The notes below the pieces were generated by a model that searched no databases, had not been told where the DNA came from, and was given only the letters and a program-made list of their open reading frames with translations. From a virus (lineage: Duplodnaviria > Heunggongvirae > Uroviricota > Caudoviricetes): a DNA stretch of 47,248 nt. A program made the translations under genes and the position numbers. This document shows, piece by piece, positions 2,203 to 32,344 of the stretch (the first letter of the stretch is position 1; every line of letters starts with the position of its first letter). The stretch lies in the IMG/VR virus record IMGVR_UViG_2711768052_000011; one strand, given 5' to 3'.

Positions 2203-3975
2203 CTAATAAACCCGGATAAATAGACCAATCATGATGCCATCAGAACCCACACTCCCCAGCCGTGAGCCCGACAACGCCCGGTATGTCCCCGAAAACGCAC
2301 CGCCTGCATACACAGAAATATCGCTGGTTTGTTGAATCGCGGGGTAGTCTGTTATCCCGACACACTTAAACTCAATAATCATAAGACGTGAGCCGGGATA
2401 CAGGTCACCACGATTTATCTGACGATTTGAATCTGAGCTGTAAGTTCCCTTGTACCCCGCCAGTACAAGACTGCCAATACCGTATCCGTCATATGTCGTT
2501 CCGGGGGTAATCCCGGACAGCGTAGCGACAACGGACGACGGCGTGTATTTCAGGGATTCCCACTCCATCAGTTTGCCAGTGGGCGAGTACCAATTCACAT
2601 GAACGCCACCATTAACACCGTAGAAAATAATATTTTTAGGTTGTTTTTCTGCTTCACCACTGGTATCGGCACTCGTCCAGATGACGTCCACAACACCAAT
2701 AAATAGTTCCCCCTCTATTACGACCCCGTTCTCCGGCCTCGTACTCACGGCATAACGTCCGGGGAGAGCGTTTTTTGCCCACGAGAGGAACATTGACCCT
2801 GACTGAAAATACACTCTGTCTTTGACAGTAAATATTTTCCCGAATCCGGACATGCCGGGGACAGCAAGACGACCGTCTGTGCAGTCGTAAATATCTGCCT
2901 GTGGTTCCATCGTGGCCGCGCTTTTTAGCCCCAGATTATCACGTGACTCCTGTTGTGCTTGTTCACCTGCTGCCGCAATCTCTGACAGATTACCGGACGT
3001 TTTCAGGGTGTTCGTCAGCAGGACATCAATGTCGTTTTTTGCCTGCTCAGCTGCGCGGGCATAACCTGCGGCTACCCGTGCGCTCTGTTCAGATGAGGCC
3101 GCGCTTTCCCCCGCACTTTTCACATCTTCCGCAGTGGCCTTTCTGTCACAGGCTGTGGCCGTTGCATCCTGTCTGGCGTTCTCCGCAAAGCGCTCAGCAT
3201 CATCACGTGCTGCTGCGGTTACCATCACATCCTGTGCGGTCTGCAGTGTGTTTCCTGCAACATTATCGGCGTGACTTTTCGCGTTTTGCGCACTTCGGGC
3301 TGCATTATCAGCGTGACTTTTTGCGCTCTGTTCGCTTCGGGCAGCGTTATCCGCATTGTTTTTTGATTCCTCTGCGCTGGATGCAGAATCATCTGCTGCC
3401 TGTTGAGCCTGCTTTACTGCATCTGTAACACTCTGCACACCCTGTTGCATCTGTCCGGCATTCTGCTCAACTTCTGCAGCCAGATGTTCAACGTGTTGTT
3501 TATCTTCGGCAACCGCGGTGGCGTTCAGCTGTACGTTATCCTCCAGCGTCTGACAGTCTTCCTTTATCTTCTGCGCATCAGCGACATGTTGCCCGGCCTG
3601 TTGTTCGCTTTCCGCTGCGGATTCGGCGCTCTGCTGCGCCTGTGCCACCATTCTCTCAAAGCGTTTCACCACGTCGGGTTTGAGGTCGCCTTCATCGGGA
3701 GCGGTCAGAAAGTCGTTCAGCGTGCCGGGCTTTGCGTCATCGTATACAGCAATGTCGCCAACACAGTACTCGTCGCGCCAGCCCTGTTTCAGATACACGC
3801 GATATTTTCCGGTCCGGGCCTCAAACGAATACTCCCCGTTATTTCCGGTCACCACATCAGCTTCAGTGCGCATCACCACTTCTGATGTGTTCACCCGGGA
3901 TTTCAGAATAATGTGGCATCCGGACATGGGGATGCCTGCGCCATCAGTCAGCGCACCATAAATTAAAACGGACAT
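2203..3975 (-). CDS. side tail fibre protein (Stf-like), second fibre
   Basis: 591 aa from internal Met MSVLIYGALTDGAG (ORF-track frame); conserved phage fibre N-terminal domain (GTLNDFL motif), Ala/Gln-rich shaft, distinct C-terminal domain; followed by tfa. Confidence 0.8.
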   Translation of the reverse strand: MSVLIYGALTDGAGIPMSGCHIILKSRVNTSEVVMRTEADVVTGNNGEYSFEARTGKYRVYLKQGWRDEYCVGDIAVYDDAKPGTLNDFLTAPDEGDLKPDVVKRFERMVAQAQQSAESAAESEQQAGQHVADAQKIKEDCQTLEDNVQLNATAVAEDKQHVEHLAAEVEQNAGQMQQGVQSVTDAVKQAQQAADDSASSAEESKNNADNAARSEQSAKSHADNAARSAQNAKSHADNVAGNTLQTAQDVMVTAAARDDAERFAENARQDATATACDRKATAEDVKSAGESAASSEQSARVAAGYARAAEQAKNDIDVLLTNTLKTSGNLSEIAAAGEQAQQESRDNLGLKSAATMEPQADIYDCTDGRLAVPGMSGFGKIFTVKDRVYFQSGSMFLSWAKNALPGRYAVSTRPENGVVIEGELFIGVVDVIWTSADTSGEAEKQPKNIIFYGVNGGVHVNWYSPTGKLMEWESLKYTPSSVVATLSGITPGTTYDGYGIGSLVLAGYKGTYSSDSNRQINRGDLYPGSRLMIIEFKCVGITDYPAIQQTSDISVYAGGAFSGTYRALSGSRLGSVGSDGIMIGLFIRVY

Positions 3976-19836: not shown

Positions 19837-20865
19837 TTATTTCACCTGTACCACCACAAACTCATCAGGATCCGGCAGTACCATCAACGGCGCGGACTGC
19901 GTCATAGTGAATTCACGGGCAGGGTCACCCACCGTCATCCAGTGTTTCGGATAACGGGAAGAGGACACCACACCTTCAGACAATGCCTGCGCATCCTGAA
20001 TTGCGCCGTAGCAACGAATCCCATCTGCAGCAGTATTCCCCAGGACCAGCGTGCCGTCTGGCAGATAACGTTTTTCGGTACCATCCTCTGCCACATAAGA
20101 CGTTTTTGCCACCACAATGGCCAGATCGCCGTAATACCCTTTGAAGGACACCACTGCGCCCAGATCTTTCACTGCCGTTTCGAGTTGTGAATTTGAACCG
20201 CGACGGGTATCCAGTTTTTCGCGGAACAGCTTAAAGCCATTCAACAGACGCCAGGCCTTGCCATCCATAATGGCAATATTCACCAGGCCACTGGCCTGAT
20301 CGCAGTACATGTCAATATCATGTGTCGGGTCAAACGTATCGCGGTTCTGATTTGACCACTCACTCCCACCTGCCTGTGTAATATTGTTTTTCGTTGATCT
20401 GCCGAAATCGACCTCAATTTTCTCGAACTGCTCCCCTTCCATGGTGTACTTGCCATACAGCACGGCATTCACCGCCTGCATCTCTTCCACCTGGACAATG
20501 GCGTGTTCTTCCTGTTTGAGATTATCGGTGATGATACGCAGACGACGGTAAGCCGGATCGTTCAGTTGAGCTGGATCTTCACCGGGAAGACGCTCCACCG
20601 CCTGCTGGTAATTAAATTCGTGTTTCGGCTTGACGTAACCCGGACGCAGTACGCGGGTTTCACCGCCACGGTGACGCAGAACCCTGCCCTCAACAACAGG
20701 AGAAACATAGGCTGCCACCGGCGTTTTGCCGGTAATTTTATCCAGCATCACTTCTTCTGTATGGAAATTGATCGTGCGACGAAAAAAAAGCTCCAGAAAC
20801 AGAGCACGAAATTTCACTTTTTGCTCGGTATAACCAAGCAACTGGCGGGTTGTAAACAATCCCAT
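19837..20865 (-). CDS. E: major capsid protein E
   Basis: 342 aa, lambda gpE-like along whole length by recall. Confidence 0.9.
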   Translation of the reverse strand: MGLFTTRQLLGYTEQKVKFRALFLELFFRRTINFHTEEVMLDKITGKTPVAAYVSPVVEGRVLRHRGGETRVLRPGYVKPKHEFNYQQAVERLPGEDPAQLNDPAYRRLRIITDNLKQEEHAIVQVEEMQAVNAVLYGKYTMEGEQFEKIEVDFGRSTKNNITQAGGSEWSNQNRDTFDPTHDIDMYCDQASGLVNIAIMDGKAWRLLNGFKLFREKLDTRRGSNSQLETAVKDLGAVVSFKGYYGDLAIVVAKTSYVAEDGTEKRYLPDGTLVLGNTAADGIRCYGAIQDAQALSEGVVSSSRYPKHWMTVGDPAREFTMTQSAPLMVLPDPDEFVVVQVK

Positions 20866-24581: not shown

Positions 24582-26496
24582 TCACTCCTCCGGACAGTTT
24601 TGCTGCCAGTTCTTCAAGGGTTGGCCGGACAGTTTCCTTCTCCCGGGATTTTGCCAGTACAGCCAGATCAAGCTGCCAGCGTTGCACGGACACACGTAAT
24701 GCCGCGTAGGCATACACCAGGCAGTCCAGCGCTTCGTTACGCCGCTTTTTGTTATCCCACAGCAGACGCATCTTCCCTTTTTCCCACTTCTCCACGAGCT
24801 CTTCCGCCACCAGTTGCTGCGCCTCTGTCTGCGAAAAAATCTCCGGATCATCAGGAAAACGGATGGCATACGACGTGGCTTCATCCGCAGGCGTGGGAGC
24901 GGACTTCATACGGGCATAGAGAATTTCTTTTGCGGTGTCCGTCCCCACCTCACACAGATAAACACCCCGCTGATTGCGAGTTTTCGGCATGGTGATCACT
25001 GGCTTGCCATAGACAGAAGCGCCTTTTACCGGCAACACCCGAAAAACACCGTGTTTTTTTGATCTCCGATAAACTATTTCACCATCGATCCCCCCGATGT
25101 CCCAGCAGACACGGGAAATGGACATTTCGGTACCATCTGCATGGCAGTATTTTTTGTTGATCGCCGCATCCACACGTAACAGCGTCTCTTCCTCATCAGG
25201 ACGCCCCATAATGATGATTTTATCCACCAGAAAGGCTTCCTCTCCCGGAGCCCATCCCCAGACATACATCTCAAAACGGTTTCGCTGAGAGTCAATGCCC
25301 GCCGTCAGATAAACCACCCGAAAAGGCACCGCAGCCGTGTAACGCACAACCTTATCCATCAGTGCCTGGTAATCGAGTTTTTCACCCACAGCCTCTTCGT
25401 AGGTCTCTCCCAGCGTGGTGTTAATAAATGTCTTGACGCCGTTCGGATCTTTCAGCGCATCCAGCCAGTCGTAGACAATCTGCACCCAGGTGGTGAACGG
25501 GCTATAGGCCGTCCAGATGTGGTACGTGATGGAGCGCGGTGGCGGCATCTCCTCATCACTGGCACTGAAAAATGCCAGACCGTCACGCGTCCACATCCCG
25601 GTATTGTCACAAATCCAGCGTCCGTCGATCTGGTCAAGTTCCGACTGCCGGATCACACAGCCATTATGTTCACACAGGTAATACACCGTTTCCGGTTTAC
25701 CCTTCTCCCATTTCAGGCCAAACGGCGTCGCATCATCACCAAACTTCAGATACTGGATCTCCCCGCAATGAGGGCAAGGAACATAAAACCGCATGAAATG
25801 CGCAGATTCATTCGCGGCTTTCTCAATCTGACAGGAGCCTTTAATTTTTGGCGTTGAACCGCGTATGGATTTAGGCCATACCGAGCCTTCAATACGTTTA
25901 TCACCAAGCAGCGTCGGCGAACCTTCTTTTTCCACATCCGGTTCAAACGAGGAGAGTTCGTCATAGCAGACCACATCCACAGATTTTTCACGGTAATTTT
26001 TGGCAGCAGCTCCCCCCAGGCACCAGAACCCCACACCGGAGGAAAAACGCTTCAGGGTGAGCGTGTTGTCACGATGTTTTCTGCCCAGCCACGGAGACAA
26101 CGCTTTAAGGCAGGGGACATCCCGCAATGTTGCTTCCACATGCGCTTTCATAAAATCTTCAGCGGCAGAATCAGTAGGCTGGAAAAGCAGGCTGTTACGG
26201 GATTTATGCTCTATAAAATACCCGACCACACCCAGCAACATTTTGGTGTAACCCACGCGCGCCGATTTAATCAGATTAATGGTACGGATCTGGTCGTTAC
26301 CCATGCTATTCATGATAGCGACCTGAAATGGCAGGGTTTTCCATTCCCCCTCACCATATGACGATTCTTTAGGCAGGTAATAATTTTGATCTGCCCATTC
26401 AACTGCCGTTACTGGCAATGCCCTTACCAGCGGCTGCAACGCAGTTCTGACAGCCCGGGCCATATTATTCAGTTGTTGTCTGGATATACTCATCAA
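24568..26496 (-). CDS. A: terminase large subunit A
   Basis: 642 aa, lambda gpA-like throughout (AVEWADxNYYLPKES, Walker-type ATPase region, C-terminal nuclease). Confidence 0.9.
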   Translation of the reverse strand: MMSISRQQLNNMARAVRTALQPLVRALPVTAVEWADQNYYLPKESSYGEGEWKTLPFQVAIMNSMGNDQIRTINLIKSARVGYTKMLLGVVGYFIEHKSRNSLLFQPTDSAAEDFMKAHVEATLRDVPCLKALSPWLGRKHRDNTLTLKRFSSGVGFWCLGGAAAKNYREKSVDVVCYDELSSFEPDVEKEGSPTLLGDKRIEGSVWPKSIRGSTPKIKGSCQIEKAANESAHFMRFYVPCPHCGEIQYLKFGDDATPFGLKWEKGKPETVYYLCEHNGCVIRQSELDQIDGRWICDNTGMWTRDGLAFFSASDEEMPPPRSITYHIWTAYSPFTTWVQIVYDWLDALKDPNGVKTFINTTLGETYEEAVGEKLDYQALMDKVVRYTAAVPFRVVYLTAGIDSQRNRFEMYVWGWAPGEEAFLVDKIIIMGRPDEEETLLRVDAAINKKYCHADGTEMSISRVCWDIGGIDGEIVYRRSKKHGVFRVLPVKGASVYGKPVITMPKTRNQRGVYLCEVGTDTAKEILYARMKSAPTPADEATSYAIRFPDDPEIFSQTEAQQLVAEELVEKWEKGKMRLLWDNKKRRNEALDCLVYAYAALRVSVQRWQLDLAVLAKSREKETVRPTLEELAAKLSGGVNGNY

Positions 26497-26971
26497 GTAA
26501 CTCCGGTAATTTATCCCCTGCCCGTGCGCACTGATTTGCTCCCTTTGCGATAAGGGTTTTCAGATGATCAATGTGACGCGGAGTTAAATCAGGGAACTGT
26601 CGTTGCATGGATAAAGGAATGGAATCAAGCGTACTGGACAATGCCATCGCCAGCTTACTGAGAGCAAAAACACAGAACTCTGAATCAACAAGTTTTCCTT
26701 CTGTTACCTGATTTTTAAGTTTTTGCGCTACGGTCTGTTCTTCAGTCAGTTCAGCTCTGGCGCGGAGCAATCTTTCCTCCAGATCACTCTCGTCATCACG
26801 TGTTTTCTGATTTTGTTGTCGCCTTTCGCGATCTATCTCCAGTACGGTTTTAACGTCATAAAAAACTTCCCTCCCCCGACGCTCAACAGGAGGAACGCCC
26901 CATTTATCAAATGCCTGAACGGATATACCGATAGAGGAGGCCATATCGCTTTTATTCAATAAAAAGGCCAT
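26465..26971 (-). CDS. Nu1: terminase small subunit Nu1
   Basis: C-terminal two-thirds alignable to lambda Nu1; chosen start MAFLLNKSD has GGAG 5 nt upstream; alternative starts at 26989 or 27076. Confidence 0.75.
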   Translation of the reverse strand: MAFLLNKSDMASSIGISVQAFDKWGVPPVERRGREVFYDVKTVLEIDRERRQQNQKTRDDESDLEERLLRARAELTEEQTVAQKLKNQVTEGKLVDSEFCVFALSKLAMALSSTLDSIPLSMQRQFPDLTPRHIDHLKTLIAKGANQCARAGDKLPELLDEYIQTTTE

Positions 26972-27149
26972 CTCCTCTCCATAAGTCATCGATAAAAAGC
27001 GATACAACAACCATGCGTTTTTGCAAAAACGTTTGATCTTGTTGATGTTTTTTACATTAACGACATCAAAAAACACCGTCAGGTTGTTGTATTTATTTGA
27101 TTTTTATCTTACTTATCAATGAGATATAGCAAACAATTAAACAACAACC

Positions 27150-27617: not shown

Positions 27618-27926
27618 TTACGGTAATTTCATGAAGGCAAATACCGGACAGCCCGGATGACGAGCATCTTCTGTTGCTTCCAGCATTGACTCACCAAACC
27701 ACTCCGTCGTGGCGCGACCGTCAGCTGCTTTGTAGTGGATCAAGTACTGGTTTTCGCCATCCGCATACTGCGCACGGGCTTTAACCTCACCCCATTCATC
27801 ACTGATGCGCATCTCCACCAGTTGAGACAACTCAAACTTAAACGGAGCAGCATCAGCACCAATTACAATCGGTTTGTTTTCTGTTTTTCCATCATCGTCT
27901 CCTGATATCGAAGCCCGTCGCCGCAC
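27618..27926 (-). CDS. hypothetical protein between lysis cassette and cos
   Basis: 102-aa ORF (apparent GTG start, no clear SD); soluble, no recognised motif. Confidence 0.3.
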   Translation of the reverse strand: MRRRASISGDDDGKTENKPIVIGADAAPFKFELSQLVEMRISDEWGEVKARAQYADGENQYLIHYKAADGRATTEWFGESMLEATEDARHPGCPVFAFMKLP

Positions 27927-28066: not shown

Positions 28067-28249
28067 TCAGTTCTGCAGACACTGCCGAACGCCATCGATA
28101 AGCTGGCAGACCTGAGAAGCCGTATCGAAAAGCTGGCGCGCCTTATCCAGGCTGACGCATCCCACCAATAAAAAAGGCACCAGTATCGCTACCAGTGCCC
28201 ATTTCGCCGCCGTTCGCGGCATTCTGTGTGTCCAGTGTTTTCTGCTCAT
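28067..28249 (-). CDS. putative lysis-associated lipoprotein (o-spanin/Rz1-like candidate)
   Basis: Start MSRKHWTHRMPRTAAKW; basic n-region, hydrophobic core, lipobox LVGC; 14 nt downstream of endolysin stop; short, not proline-rich. Confidence 0.4.
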   Translation of the reverse strand: MSRKHWTHRMPRTAAKWALVAILVPFLLVGCVSLDKARQLFDTASQVCQLIDGVRQCLQN

Positions 28250-28263
28250 AACACACCTGGTTA

Positions 28264-28650
28264 TCAGCGTTTCAACTGAAAGTGAGGCCCGTCTTTCAGT
28301 GTTTTCCAGTCCCCACCCCATTCGATGGCAGTTCCCAGCTCTGCGGCAGCCTGCTTAAATGCCTGCGCGATTTTCTCGTACAGAGGCCAGTCCCATGACA
28401 CCTGGCTGCCAATGTAGGCCACAACATCCACCGCATCACCTGTAAGGTGGCGGCTGTTCATGGTCTGGCTTTTCCCTGCCGCTACCAGCTGTTTCTGGCG
28501 ATACTTACTGCGCAGACCTTCCGTGATACCAAAATCAACCTCCGTCAGCTCCAGCGCACGGCGAACGACAGCAACCAGCTGTGGTTTGACGCCCTCCAGA
28601 TTTTTTTCACTGCGACGGCTGAATCTGAATTTACCCGGCATCATATTCAC
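28264..28650 (-). CDS. endolysin, L-alanyl-D-glutamate peptidase (peptidase M15, T5-Lys type)
   Basis: Zn-binding motifs HxxGxAxD (RHLTGDAVD) and DxxH (KDGPHF); overall pattern resembles T5 endolysin by recall. Confidence 0.8.
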   Translation of the reverse strand: MNMMPGKFRFSRRSEKNLEGVKPQLVAVVRRALELTEVDFGITEGLRSKYRQKQLVAAGKSQTMNSRHLTGDAVDVVAYIGSQVSWDWPLYEKIAQAFKQAAAELGTAIEWGGDWKTLKDGPHFQLKR

Positions 28651-28922
28651 CTCAACAATGGAAAGATTTTTGTGACGTTCCCGCGTGCGCGTATCACCAG
28701 CACGCAGAACAGCAGGTTAAAAAACACTTCCAGCCAGCCCGTTGCTAACGGGCGACCACACAGATAGCTGAGGGGCGCAAAGGCATACAGCAGCATCAGC
28801 AGCCAGGCCAGCCATGACATCAGCGGTTTGTGTCTGGAGTCACGACGACGATAAAAAAAGAGCGTCAGCACGATAACCGTGCATAACGCCACATTCAGTA
28901 ATCCGGGAAGGTTACTTAACAT
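28647..28922 (-). CDS. membrane protein in lysis cassette (holin/antiholin candidate)
   Basis: 91 aa, three hydrophobic segments, GGAGG RBS, start overlaps preceding gene stop. Confidence 0.45.
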   Translation of the reverse strand: MLSNLPGLLNVALCTVIVLTLFFYRRRDSRHKPLMSWLAWLLMLLYAFAPLSYLCGRPLATGWLEVFFNLLFCVLVIRARGNVTKIFPLLR

Positions 28923-29304
28923 TGCCGCCTCCTCCGCCCCGCAGGCGCGAGAACAGGCCGGACACCAGTGATGCGATATCCTGCTGGTGGATGAACGACA
29001 GAATCTTCACCGACACCACCGCCACCAGCACCGCACACAGTGCATCCGCAGATGTACCGTCATAACCTGTTTTTGATGCAATCCAGGCTGACAGTACACG
29101 CGCCCCCAGTACACCAACAATGAACGACACCAGAAAATGTGCCGCCACACGCCAGGCTGAAATCTTCTGCGGCATCGTTGCCACAAACAACGCCCCGGCG
29201 AACGCACCAAACACAATCCCGAAATCCGTTCCGGTAAACAGCCCGAATACCGTCGCCCCGCCGAGCGCCGCAGCCGTGCCGGAACCGGATAAGGGTTCAG
29301 ACAT
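28912..29304 (-). CDS. putative holin (3-TM, Gly/Ala-rich helices)
   Basis: Start MSEPLSGSGTAAALGG with GGAGA RBS; multiple TM segments, charged C-terminus. Confidence 0.5.
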   Translation of the reverse strand: MSEPLSGSGTAAALGGATVFGLFTGTDFGIVFGAFAGALFVATMPQKISAWRVAAHFLVSFIVGVLGARVLSAWIASKTGYDGTSADALCAVLVAVVSVKILSFIHQQDIASLVSGLFSRLRGGGGGNVK

Positions 29305-29391
29305 ACTTTTTCTCCTGTAAATAAAAAAGGGCCACCAACGGCCCATAAAAACACCCCATCAAAGGCACCCGCAGATGCCTTTTGTGTGGTG

Positions 29392-29544
29392 TTATTCAGA
29401 TTTACGCAGTAAAGGCCGGAGCACGACCAGCGCCATCGCCACCAGCACACCATCTGCCAGCACCGACATCAGCCGTCCGGTGAAATCCACCACCACTACC
29501 AGAAACAGCAGGATGGCAGCCAGCACAAGGCGCGCACTTTTCAC
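29392..29544 (-). CDS. small hydrophobic membrane protein (approx. 50 aa), translationally coupled
   Basis: GTG start overlaps stop of upstream gene (GTGA); product VKSARLVLAAILLFLVVVVDFTGRLMSVLADGVLVAMALVVLRPLLRKSE; not in ORF track (below 60 aa). Confidence 0.35.
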   Translation of the reverse strand: MKSARLVLAAILLFLVVVVDFTGRLMSVLADGVLVAMALVVLRPLLRKSE

Positions 29545-29966
29545 AGGTACTGCTCCAGCGGCAACTGCAACGCCTGTGCAATTTTCTTGAGCTGCACTTC
29601 TTCATCAGGACCGATGCCGTCCTGGTCAGCAATATCCAGACACAGACACAGCACGTTAACTGCATCATCAGTACCGGCAACATCAGCCAGCTGACGAAGG
29701 GCTTCGGCATTGGCAGAACGCGGTGACGCTTCATAACGGGCGCGGATATTTGCACTCATTTGTGCAATCTCACCCGAGAACGGCGCAAAGGCAGGAAGTG
29801 CTGCAATGGTTTTCTCCAGCACAGCGATTTCTTTCGCATCACAGGTGCCGTCGGCGAATGCTATGGAATACGCACCCCAGACGGTCGCCTCCACTGCATC
29901 GCGGTTCTCCATCTTCTTCACTTCGGTAATGGCCTTGCGGGTTTTCTTTTTGAAAATACCAAACAT
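29541..29966 (-). CDS. hypothetical protein, TerB-like features, first gene of lysis cluster
   Basis: 141 aa soluble acidic protein with ADG and acidic patches reminiscent of TerB-like fold; AAGGAAAAG RBS. Confidence 0.45.
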   Translation of the reverse strand: MFGIFKKKTRKAITEVKKMENRDAVEATVWGAYSIAFADGTCDAKEIAVLEKTIAALPAFAPFSGEIAQMSANIRARYEASPRSANAEALRQLADVAGTDDAVNVLCLCLDIADQDGIGPDEEVQLKKIAQALQLPLEQYL

Positions 29967-30335
29967 CGTGACTTTTCCTTTTAGTGGGTGAGCCTGCGCC
30001 CGGGGGTGACCAGCCCACAGAGAAAGTCACACTGACCATCCCGTAAGCTCACCCCTGAAAGGCTCTGTGGTTTTTGATGTGCGCCGGGCGTGGCGCAAAG
30101 AAATGAAATAAGACTTACCTGAAATTAAGGTTAATCTGAGGATTTAAACCATTTTTAAAGCTTAGTAATATCAACTCGTCTCCTGAAGGAGACAGATACT
30201 TATGATTCTTCATGGACTTTGTCCCGCGGCGTTAATCCGACGGCCGCGCTTTTTTTGCGCCATATTCATCGCTAACTTACATGGCATTGCCACACGGGCA
30301 TTATCAGTGTCCGTGTTTCTTTTTTTAGGATTCAG

Positions 30336-30364
30336 AATAAAAAAAACCGCCCGGTGGAGGCGGT
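30336..30364 (-). terminator. intrinsic terminator in late leader
   Basis: Minus strand ACCGCC-(7 nt loop)-GGCGGT followed by T8. Confidence 0.6.
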
Positions 30365-30631
30365 AAAGGATGTATTTCCAGGTTTTGCTTAATATATGAA
30401 TAATCTCAATGTCATGGTGTTATTTACAACACCAGAATGATGCATCACCGACCCTGCCAGGAAATATAAAATCTCCGCCGAAAATGCACCATTCTGCTGC
30501 CGTAAAAAAATCAGCACTGCGGCTACACCCGACCCCAAATCATAGCCAGAGAACAGAATGTTTTTAACAATCTACCCCCACGTAATAAAAAAATACGTCA
30601 GTGCCGTCACTATAAGGCGTATTTCAAATGT

Positions 30632-30680
<49 letters not shown>

Positions 30681-30833
30681 TGCTCTATCCGGATGAGCTA
30701 GTGACGGTTTTATTGCCACATCCGTAACAACAGTCGACAGGAATAATATACATTCAGAATCAGCCGCCTTAGCTAATTGTGCAACCATCTGCTCTTTGCA
30801 AGTGCACTTAACGTCCTGCGCCACTTTTCAGGC

Positions 30834-30862
30834 ATAAAAAAACCCGCTCAGTGGCGGGATCT
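30834..30862 (-). terminator. intrinsic terminator (candidate tR')
   Basis: Minus strand CCCGC-(6 nt)-GCGGG followed by T8. Confidence 0.55.
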
Positions 30863-30989
30863 TTTGATAAAAACGACAAAGGCACCATTAAGGTGCCTTT
30901 TACACAGGGGCAGCAGGCTTGTCATCACCTCATCGCTACTCCTGGCTTCCTGTTCGGAAGTCTCACAAGTCCCATCAGGGTACAGCGAC

Positions 30990-31018
30990 AGTATCAGCCA
31001 ACACACTATGTGTGTCAA
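30990..31018 (-). promoter_or_regulatory. candidate sigma70 promoter (possible late promoter pR')
   Basis: Minus strand TTGACA, 17-nt spacer containing palindrome ACACACTATGTGTGT, then GATACT. Confidence 0.35.
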
Positions 31019-31053
31019 TATAAATTCATATCGAATTCGATAATCGTTTTCGA

Positions 31054-31455
31054 TTATCGATACAGATAAGCCATCCCTATCCCGTGCAATACCGCCCGTT
31101 TAATATTCTCAAACTCATCTTCCGCAATCATAGGAACAATATAATTTCGTCCCTCCCAGGTTCTGGTTTTTATGCGATCCAGTCGGCTCAATGAAACCGT
31201 CATCAACATGTCACATTTTACCCAGCAAGTAATATGCTCATTACCAGGTATGGGGTTTTCTGATAACTCATGATGGCAATCTCTGCGAGGGAGCGGTTCA
31301 GTAGTGCTTATTGGTACCACTGTTACCAATTGATTGTTGTGCCTGTTTCTGGACACGACCACCACTGGCCTGACCTTGACTATTTCCGGAACAACCATTC
31401 CCCGAAAATCACACATTAAAACAGAACGAACAGACGGCTGATACTTTAATACCAT
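31054..31455 (-). CDS. MazF/PemK-family toxin-like protein (orphan, no adjacent antitoxin)
   Basis: Start MVLKYQPSVRSVLMCDFRGMVVPEIVKVRPVVVVSRN parallels MazF N-terminus (MVSRYVPDMGDLIWVDF...RPAVVLS) by recall; ORF track extends to 31533. Confidence 0.5.
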   Translation of the reverse strand: MVLKYQPSVRSVLMCDFRGMVVPEIVKVRPVVVVSRNRHNNQLVTVVPISTTEPLPRRDCHHELSENPIPGNEHITCWVKCDMLMTVSLSRLDRIKTRTWEGRNYIVPMIAEDEFENIKRAVLHGIGMAYLYR

Positions 31456-31555
31456 AAATCTCTTTGCCTGATAATGACGACTTGTGAACTCCACTACAAA
31501 CAAAATGATTCTGCTGAACAGGCAGTTTCGCACTATACATTATAACCTGTTAAGC

Positions 31556-31585
31556 CAACAAAAAAACCCGCTCGGCGGCGGGATT
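31556..31585 (-). terminator. intrinsic terminator downstream of Q-like gene
   Basis: Minus strand CCCGC-(6 nt)-GCGGG followed by T7; same core as terminator at 30834..30862. Confidence 0.5.
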
Positions 31586-31648
31586 TGCTTACTTTGCCAT
31601 CGAGTACAAAATCGGCAAAATATCAGATTTGCACGAAATATATGCCTT

Positions 31649-32344
31649 TTAATCTACTTTTGCAACACTTTGCTTTGAAAATGCCGTCTTTTGTTCTGAA
31701 CGTGTTCTCATCACAAACAATAAAGCCTCACTATCCAGCCGGTGGAAAATGTGTTTCATTGCAACCCAGTGACCAGTAAATGTTTTGGACCAGTTTTTTG
31801 TTGTTACTCCCGCCAGTAATGCCAGTTCCTGATATTCATAAGTTTCACGCCCAGCTAGCTCACTCTTCACATCCTGTGCCGCCAGCCAGATTAATTTTTT
31901 CAGGCGCTCCCGTGTTTTCTCCGCAATTTTTCTGGTACCAGATTGCGCGTTAAATTCATTCCACGCCCACTGTGTTATCGCAATCTGGTGTTCCCAGCAA
32001 ATGCTGCCGCTGTAACACCACAGCAACCAGGCTTTATAGTGTTCTTCAAGAGACAGAACCGCCCGTCGCCATGATGATGTCGAAAACTCAACCTGACTTA
32101 CCAGAGGAATTGACGTCCTCTTTGCCAGCGATTGTTTCCCCGGGATTGGTGGATTATCCCGCGTTATCATTTTTCCGGTCACTTCATCGCGGTACCGGAT
32201 TTTTTTACGCCTGTAACGCCCTGTATCAAACATGGCATTCTCCTGCCAGGCTTCAAGCTGACCTTTTGTTGCCTCACTCAAATCGGCGGTGGCAATAATG
32301 AGCTGCTCACGAACAAACTGTAAATACTGGTTATTCATGCGCAC
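31649..32344 (-). CDS. putative late antiterminator Q-like protein
   Basis: 231-aa ORF immediately downstream of rusA (10-nt overlap) and upstream of lysis region; sequence not confidently matched. Confidence 0.5.
   Translation of the reverse strand: MRMNNQYLQFVREQLIIATADLSEATKGQLEAWQENAMFDTGRYRRKKIRYRDEVTGKMITRDNPPIPGKQSLAKRTSIPLVSQVEFSTSSWRRAVLSLEEHYKAWLLWCYSGSICWEHQIAITQWAWNEFNAQSGTRKIAEKTRERLKKLIWLAAQDVKSELAGRETYEYQELALLAGVTTKNWSKTFTGHWVAMKHIFHRLDSEALLFVMRTRSEQKTAFSKQSVAKVD

Follow-up and report, generated by a model that had tools for sequence, protein, structure and literature searches.

A conserved lipoprotein in the spanin slot of an Escherichia coli SE11 prophage that may act without a phage-encoded i-spanin

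The stretch of DNA analysed here (IMG/VR record IMGVR_UViG_2711768052_000011, 47,248 nucleotides (nt), referred to as the window) is 100% identical to positions 1738089-1785336 of the E. coli SE11 chromosome (NC_011415.1), and we assign it as a complete lambdoid prophage of that strain, inserted at ydfJ. Six open reading frames (ORFs) between 28067 and 29966, all on the minus strand, had been described in an earlier note as a single non-canonical lysis cassette. Their limits are as given there, and RefSeq annotates all six in SE11. A Q antiterminator gene lies upstream of them and, on the other side, a lambda-type terminase, whose Nu1 homologue occupies 26467-26973, lies downstream. On the evidence set out below, this interval is composed of two units: an accessory (moron) module related to tciA/tciB, and a four-gene lysis cassette encoding two holin-family proteins, an M15 endolysin and a small prolipoprotein. 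The lipoprotein, which is positioned where a spanin gene would be expected, is the subject of this report; we place at about even the prospect that it is a lysis protein that acts without an inner-membrane spanin (i-spanin) of the phage. The features of the region are listed here in window coordinates, with protein lengths in amino acids (aa).

29541-29966, minus strand: tciA-like TerB-family protein, 141 aa (PF05099, phrog_632); accessory (moron) gene
29392-29544, minus strand: tciB-like DUF3927 membrane peptide, 50 aa, with a GTG start (PF13064, phrog_1470)
29319-29344, minus strand: terminator-like hairpin GGGCCGTTGGTGGCCC (hairpin 29344-29329) followed by a T-run, from a consensus scan; between tciAB and the ribosome-binding site (RBS) of the first holin gene
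28912-29304, minus strand: Phage_holin_8 protein, 130 aa, holin candidate 1, with three hydrophobic segments (PF16931, phrog_198)
28647-28922, minus strand: Phage_holin_3_7 protein with three transmembrane (TM) segments, 91 aa, holin/antiholin candidate 2 (PF05449, phrog_217)
28264-28641, minus strand: M15C L-alanyl-D-glutamate endopeptidase endolysin, 125 aa, predicted cytoplasmic (PF13539 Peptidase_M15_4, phrog_465)
28067-28249, minus strand: prolipoprotein in the spanin slot, 60 aa, lipobox LVGC with Cys31 (phrog_7528)
28165-28200, minus strand: terminator-like hairpin inside signal-peptide codons 17-29 of the lipoprotein gene, from a consensus scan and folding
31649-32338, minus strand: Q antiterminator gene (RefSeq annotation)
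27618-27926, minus strand: soluble ORF without a TM segment, homologous to phiP27 L33 (phrog_1935 at 3e-54); not assigned to the cassette

The lipoprotein is the only ORF with a lipobox in a scan that covered the whole window on both strands and took every ATG, GTG and TTG start, which bears out the earlier assignment of its LVGC motif. The precursor begins with a cationic n-region of 16 residues (+5; M-x-R-K-H-W-T-H-R-x-P-R-x-A-A-K), in which H5, T7, H8 and R9 are invariant. This is followed by an h-region whose conserved form in the family is ALVAILVPFLLVG, and by the lipobox L-V-G-C. The signal peptide (residues 14-32) is the sole hydrophobic segment of the protein. The mature part contains 30 residues including the lipid-modified Cys31 (29 after it), and position +2 after Cys31 is Val in the window and Val, Ala or Thr in the family, with no Asp. 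Cys31 is invariant, as are Cys48 and Cys57, which are present in 20/20 aligned members with C-x8-C spacing. A divergent subfamily, with mature sequence VSLEKARNWFGVAADVCDTVKKIKDRC, retains the same cysteine pattern and the same spacing. The mature peptide has a net charge of 0, contains no proline and carries an amphipathic stripe of hydrophobic residues in heptad register. Jpred predictions reported in a spanin census assign helix to 25 of the 30 mature residues (PMC6139136, supplementary table).

In comparisons between genera, synonymous divergence (pS) in the mature part is 0.4-0.86 and nonsynonymous divergence (pN) is 0.08-0.27, giving a pN/pS of ~0.2-0.3; by this measure the mature lipoprotein is under purifying selection. 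The idea that the ORF is no more than a reading frame arisen by chance over a terminator was rejected because the mature part diverges synonymously while its amino acids are kept. An extended start that would give an 84-aa product was also rejected, as the upstream sequence varies with context and the M-x-R-K-H-W start is conserved. At 90% identity the family falls into 158 clusters, whose members come almost entirely from Escherichia, Salmonella, Citrobacter, Cronobacter and Yersinia. The cassette is common, its lipoprotein gene occurring in 314 of the 5426 complete genomes of E. coli. The gene is carried by the Shiga-toxin phages phiP27 and phiSTEC1575-Stx2k, and a Yersinia kristensenii prophage (L091) encodes it together with LT-II. 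When 1.8 billion cluster representatives were searched with a profile, only 21 clusters at 50% identity were recovered, all belonging to the same small family, and there was no link to Rz1, release proteins or entericidins. Scans of the lipoprotein against Pfam and NCBIfam gave no match, PHROG gives only phrog_7528, to which no function is attached, and a literature search on motifs of the peptide found no match.

In size and architecture the precursor resembles the colicin lysis proteins, which likewise combine a mature lipoprotein of ~30 residues with a conspicuous signal peptide and are tied to envelope permeabilisation. A mode of action like that of the bacteriocin release proteins, with slow processing, a stable cationic signal peptide and activation of outer-membrane phospholipase A, would be a sub-variant of a lipoprotein that works on its own. 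The 60-aa precursor, its ~30-aa mature part, the LLVGC-type lipobox and the long conserved cationic n-region (16 aa, +5) would all suit this model, and the release protein of pCloDF13 has a functional stable signal peptide. The colicin lysis proteins, however, are encoded in colicin operons, whereas the window lipoprotein lies in a phage late operon, and the two show no sequence relationship: none of 20 family members matches PF02402 (Lysis_col) at E <= 10. Their composition also differs, as the mature part described here is predicted to be helical and heptad-patterned rather than rich in Gly, Ser and Thr, and an RNA hairpin embedded in the signal-peptide codons (described below) explains part of the signal-peptide conservation. 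We regard a release-protein mechanism as very unlikely.

Genomic context was compared across 95 loci with upstream sequence, several of which are copies of the same prophages, so that not all counts are independent. The lipoprotein gene follows a same-strand endolysin gene in 91 of the 95 (60 M15 and 31 GH108 enzymes), and the two genes adjoin in 49 loci, where gaps range from -4 to +15 nt. The gap in the window is 14 nt, and an ATGA overlap between endolysin stop and lipoprotein start is found in Yersinia prophages with different virion modules and in one Mu-like phage. Together with the absence of a promoter-like site at the lipoprotein gene in a consensus scan, this spacing suggests co-translation of the lipoprotein with the endolysin from the late operon and a lack of expression in lysogens. 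Four kinds of holin accompany the gene, which is found on backbones of lambdoid, Mu-like and myovirus type, and in divergent members a lambda-S-type holin, an endolysin and the lipoprotein form a three-gene cassette. The endolysin is the only constant neighbour; no membrane protein is constant. Insertions are concentrated between the endolysin and lipoprotein genes (loci L024-L087 and L099), a hotspot whose cargo includes a gene for a KilA-N protein and, in L099, genes for the LT-II enterotoxin.

These contexts bear on the alternative that the lipoprotein is a late accessory or regulatory protein, involved in lysis timing, envelope stress or superinfection, and that the outer membrane fails by itself once the wall is lost. 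Accessory lipoproteins, lambda bor among them, are known to be encoded downstream of phage lysis genes. Insertions between endolysin and lipoprotein, the existence of cassettes that lack the lipoprotein and the lack of a match to any lysis family would fit an accessory role, as would the 91 of 677 phages without a recognisable spanin in the published census (PMC6139136). An accessory gene would be harder to reconcile with the missing promoter-like site and with a linkage that outlasts exchanges of endolysin class, holin type and virion module. Phage GER2 (L098, MG710528) adds a further point: it has a canonical S-R-Rz cassette, and its lipoprotein copy (3489-3680), located ~750 bp downstream of that cassette, is broken by several stop codons. 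This pseudogene is consistent with the lipoprotein being redundant when a spanin is present. On balance an accessory role seems unlikely to us.

A two-component spanin would require an i-spanin gene adjacent to, overlapping with or embedded in the gene of its lipoprotein partner, and none is found in the window. In any frame, the ORF scan produced no credible candidate in which one N-terminal TM segment precedes a soluble stretch of 30 residues or more; its matches were the signal peptide of Lom, a tail assembly protein and out-of-frame translations within known genes. Likewise, the window scans revealed no recognisable unimolecular spanin (u-spanin) or embedded Rz1 in the whole prophage, so the earlier observation that no Rz/Rz1 or i-spanin is recognisable holds on both strands. 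Two out-of-frame ORFs, 29402-29755 and 29007-29453, were considered as nested spanins and rejected because their translations are rich in Cys, Arg and Gly, lie inside the tciAB and holin genes and are not conserved. The DUF3927 peptide was rejected as an i-spanin on the grounds that it has two hydrophobic stretches and no periplasmic domain and occurs in a subset of loci only.

An i-spanin has nevertheless been assigned to the closely related cassette of phage phiP27. Kongari et al. (2018) list phiP27 with a ‘separated’ two-component spanin that forms a singleton family and has, at 62 residues, the shortest combined periplasmic length in their data set (PMC6139136). Their table places the i-spanin at 20348-20542 (64 aa) and the outer-membrane spanin (o-spanin) at 20706-20861 (51 aa) (PMC6139136), and the latter is a homologue of the window lipoprotein. 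The proposed i-spanin ORF (NC_003356 20348-20542, corresponding to L002 3813-4007) starts with TTG, lies in a ~470-bp insert specific to phiP27 and runs antisense to a 90-aa ORF with an ATG start that matches phrog_36812. The phrog_36812 ORF keeps 45% protein identity in locus L037, where the ‘i-spanin’ frame is not conserved. The i-spanin ORF itself has no PHROG match, is absent from the window and, in a search of 98 sequences, turned up in three, which are phiP27 itself or copies nearly identical to it. Because of its TTG start, its location in a phage-specific insert antisense to a conserved gene and its narrow distribution, the published assignment appears unsupported and looks spurious.

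The lipoprotein might still be an ordinary o-spanin whose inner-membrane partner has escaped recognition, with the complex fusing the two membranes as Rz-Rz1 does. The partner could then be a very small or atypical TM protein of the phage, a holin-family protein, or a protein of the host or of a cryptic prophage. The lipobox Cys with its outer-membrane sorting signal (no Asp at +2), the periplasmic Cys48 and Cys57, which could form intermolecular disulfides, and the position after the endolysin are all properties of o-spanins, and the census assigns the phiP27 homologue to this class (PMC6139136). Small TM ORFs (phrog_1115, phrog_4906) lie immediately upstream of the lipoprotein gene in some loci, and nested spanin genes have been overlooked before, LambdaSo being an example. 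Against this, the window offers no candidate partner in any frame, no membrane protein is retained across the four kinds of holin, and the small TM ORFs are missing from all 49 cassettes in which the endolysin and lipoprotein genes adjoin, that of the window included. The partner proposed in the literature is the non-conserved antisense ORF described above, and the spread of the lipoprotein over Escherichia, Salmonella, Citrobacter, Yersinia, Lelliottia and Cronobacter hosts makes a single cryptic-prophage Rz an unlikely partner. We judge an ordinary two-component spanin to be improbable.

Comparison with characterised systems also sets the protein apart. Lambda Rz1-type o-spanins resemble it in being small lipoproteins encoded after the endolysin and having periplasmic cysteines, but the window has neither an i-spanin gene nor a match to the Rz1 family. 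Rz1 contains 10 prolines in a mature part of 40 residues and is unstructured, whereas the window protein has 0 prolines in 30 residues and a predicted helical mature part. The unimolecular spanin gp11 of phage T1 is likewise the product of a single gene in the spanin slot with an N-terminal lipoprotein signal; the window lipoprotein differs in having no C-terminal TM anchor and, with 30 mature residues, cannot bridge the membranes. The disruptin of phiKT, gp28, takes the place of a spanin in a phage that has none and is a small peptide forming an amphipathic helix (Holt et al., bioRxiv 10.1101/515445). It is cationic and has no signal or lipid anchor, whereas the window lipoprotein is neutral and lipid-anchored and contains three cysteines, which places it outside the disruptins.

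The remainder of the cassette consists of recognisable lysis genes. The 130-aa protein matches PF16931 (Phage_holin_8; 6e-24, 84.9 bits against a cut-off of 26.4) and the holin family phrog_198 (3e-42), and the 91-aa protein matches PF05449 (Phage_holin_3_7; 6e-22, 77.9 bits against a cut-off of 25.4) and the holin family phrog_217 (1.5e-38). Hydropathy analysis gives three hydrophobic segments in each, both genes are upstream of the endolysin, and the 91-aa gene overlaps the 130-aa gene by 11 nt. The two proteins are probably a holin and its partner or regulator. The endolysin matches PF13539 (48.2 bits, cut-off 25) and phrog_465, and its closest structures are Serratia ChiX (5opz, 1.5e-43), two phage L-Ala-D-Glu peptidases and the T5 enzyme (2mxz, 2.8e-23), with 8q2g matched at 3e-42. 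A zinc motif, H65-x6-D72...H120, aligns with ChiX SRHLTGHAVDV...GPHFQL, which agrees with the earlier identification of an M15 L-Ala-D-Glu endolysin. The enzyme has no hydrophobic segment, signal or SAR sequence and is therefore expected to need a hole-forming holin.

The earlier note also read the combination of lambda-like structural genes with a T5-type endolysin as module exchange. Exchange is supported by the finding that related loci carry an M15 enzyme in some cases and a GH108 enzyme in others between one holin pair and the lipoprotein. The T5-like character of the endolysin is no evidence of exchange with T5, because the enzyme is closer to ChiX and of a type that temperate enterobacterial phages, phiP27 and P88 among them, often carry. 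The window endolysin is a close homologue of ChiX, from the ChiWXYZ (type 10 secretion) cassette of Serratia marcescens, and of the P88 M15 enzyme. ChiX is followed by the spanins ChiY and ChiZ. In P88 a DUF2570-domain protein directly follows the M15 endolysin, at the place taken by the lipoprotein in the window; DUF2570 is a mark of Rz-like i-spanins, and the P88 protein, as a candidate of this kind, would make this a position for spanin genes.

As a sequence the lysis cassette is not new: it is of the phiP27 type and was already sequenced. The holins, endolysin and lipoprotein correspond to L28, L29, L30 and ORF 20679-20861 of the Stx2e phage phiP27 (NC_003356; Recktenwald and Schmidt 2002, as cited in PMC12571312), with 88-98% amino-acid identity (96% for the endolysin and 90% for the lipoprotein), and the cassette is 92-93% identical to L28-L30 plus the lipoprotein. 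The two phages share both holin families, the M15 endolysin, the lipoprotein and their order downstream of Q. They differ in that phiP27 carries stx2e and tRNA genes where the window has tciA/tciB, and in the ~470-bp insert, comprising L31 and the antisense phrog_36812 gene, that separates endolysin and lipoprotein in phiP27. In porcine Shiga toxin-producing E. coli, deletion of a holin gene downstream of stx2e, possibly a homologue of L28, lowered Stx2e release (PMC12571312). A similar tciAB-holin-M15-lipoprotein region, with 86-99% amino-acid and 92.6% nucleotide identity to E. coli prophages, is present in PP818812.1, ‘Actinobacillus phage vB_Apl-pPE4’ (L003), the host label of which looks doubtful.

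The signal-peptide codons of the lipoprotein gene contain a second structural element. On the minus strand, positions 28200-28165 encode a hairpin with an 11-bp stem and a GCGA loop, followed by UUUUUUAUU, and folding of the 5' 110 nt of the gene gives z = -4.3. Over a 24-nt core there is no variation among E. coli, Salmonella, Citrobacter, Yersinia and Lelliottia, whereas the codons around it approach synonymous saturation; the hairpin region has a pS of 0.09-0.39, the flanks mostly 0.2-0.86. Those changes that the alignments do show within the hairpin region affect its loop, closing codon and T-tract. Divergent members keep the hairpin and T-tract, with pairing in 95.5% of cells and two compensatory pairs in L107. 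Covariation is modest, the observed values being reached in 38-48 of 500 shuffles, and Rfam has no family for the hairpin. Together these observations suggest that the hairpin is selected at the nucleotide level as a dual-coded regulatory element, for example a terminator that Q can override. The greater conservation of the signal peptide relative to the mature part would then be due in part to this embedded constraint.

The two genes upstream of the holins form a separate unit. The TerB-like protein matches PF05099 (28.7 bits, cut-off 24.4) and phrog_632 (4e-64), and the gene is 78% identical in nucleotide sequence to tciA of phage P1. The 50-aa peptide matches PF13064 (DUF3927; 1.6e-14, above the cut-off) and the TciB-like phrog_1470 (7e-24). 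The order of the genes is that of P1, including the overlapping small tciB: the stop codon of tciA and the GTG start of tciB share the sequence GTGA (tcac on the plus strand at 29541-29544), the coupling that had been read here before. P1 tciA-tciB-tciC and the window thus share a 141-aa TerB-family protein followed by an overlapping DUF3927 peptide; no tciC was seen in the window, where the module is part of a lambdoid prophage and separates Q from the holin genes. The pair is found in 23 of the 95 related loci, and its slot holds stx2e and tRNA genes in phiP27. The first holin gene has a strong RBS of its own, AGGAGA, 6 nt before the ATG at 29304, and the hairpin at 29344-29329, which we infer acts as a terminator, separates tciB from this RBS. 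Homology to P1, presence in only 23 loci, the equivalence of the slot to that of stx2e and the separating hairpin all argue that tciA/tciB is an accessory rather than a lysis module. Of the six-gene cassette first proposed, the holins, endolysin and lipoprotein are retained, while the TerB-like protein and the 50-aa peptide are reassigned; the earlier observation is confirmed and its interpretation stands in part.

Several further features surround the two units. By analogy with lambda, Q is the likely driver of late transcription through the lysis cassette, and the consensus scan places a tR'-like hairpin downstream of the Q gene at 31582-31567. The stretch between Q and tciA (30100-31600) is rich in hairpins, with 19 terminator-like hairpins in 5.4 kb versus 6.1 expected. 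An isrK-like match at 31561-31632 is weak (19.5 bits, under the family threshold). A PemK/MazF-family toxin gene is located at 31054-31455, with no antitoxin annotated beside it. Rfam identifies a truncated tRNA on the minus strand at 30643-30700 (model positions 8-63 of 71, 48.5 bits), whereas ARAGORN reports no tRNA in the window and so misses it. This element, which is probably a decayed phage tRNA, occupies the slot of ileZ and argO in phiP27. On the other side of the cassette, the phrog_1935 ORF (27618-27926) is an optional neighbour, found in roughly half of the related loci and there at a constant ~+363 nt from the lipoprotein start; RefSeq gives only a 64-aa version of it.

In the established model of Gram-negative phage lysis, the holin and endolysin are followed by a spanin or, in one known case, by a cationic disruptin. 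The lysis pathway of the SE11 prophage would follow the same course up to its final step. Q-modified RNA polymerase would read through the terminator-like hairpins into the cassette, the two holin-family proteins would permeabilise the inner membrane at a set time, and the signal-less M15C endopeptidase would escape and strip peptide stems from the peptidoglycan. The prolipoprotein would be lipidated at Cys31, freed of its signal peptide and sorted to the outer membrane, as expected for Val or Ala rather than Asp at +2. The mature helix, with its 30 residues, neutral charge, amphipathic heptad pattern and two invariant cysteines, would then destabilise the outer membrane, so that the lipoprotein would fill the Rz/Rz1 slot with no phage-encoded inner-membrane partner. 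The Q, holin and endolysin steps are drawn from family membership and lambda biology, and the outer-membrane step from the position of the gene, its translational coupling, its retention across module swaps and the lack of an alternative. We infer in this way the timing, the respective holin and antiholin roles, the outer-membrane sorting and the unaided disruption of the outer membrane by the lipoprotein.

A number of observations weigh against a lipoprotein that acts alone. To our knowledge there is no precedent for a lone o-spanin-like lipoprotein that works, and a helix of 30 residues is far too short to span the periplasm. AlphaFold2, run on the family alignment, returns one helix over residues 12-59 at low confidence (pLDDT 69). 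Linkage to the endolysin is not always tight: in 42 of the 91 loci the two genes are separated by 250-1070 bp of variable small genes, some of which encode TM peptides (phrog_1115, phrog_4906), and some of these variants could supply a partner. The lipoprotein copy of one prophage with LT-II toxin genes is frameshifted, and cassettes of Cronobacter (L102) and Raoultella (L104) with the Phage_holin_8, Phage_holin_3_7 and GH108 genes have no lipoprotein. Because constraint on the nucleotides accounts for at least part of it, the conservation of the signal peptide is not usable as evidence of protein function. Finally, with ~13% of census phages lacking a recognisable spanin (PMC6139136), a factor dedicated to the outer membrane is not logically required.

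A bolder form of the proposal that the lipoprotein works without an i-spanin would make it a third class of outer-membrane disruptor, after spanins and disruptins, in which the helix needs no inner-membrane partner and both the cationic signal peptide and the hairpin are functional. Such a protein might act through disulfide-linked self-association in the outer membrane or, alternatively, through transient bridging between lipidated copies in the inner and outer membranes, and the hairpin could limit its synthesis to Q-antiterminated transcripts. We advance this form tentatively and hold its chances to be somewhat below even.

The new point that we consider supportable from these comparisons is that the lipoprotein of the spanin slot is conserved on its own and that its published partner does not appear to be real. 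The lipoprotein is a good and easily tested candidate for a single-component outer-membrane disruptor. Should it disrupt the outer membrane unaided, no smaller protein with this activity that is genetically tractable would be known, a published spanin assignment would be corrected, and its activity would bear on the release of the toxins encoded next to such cassettes.

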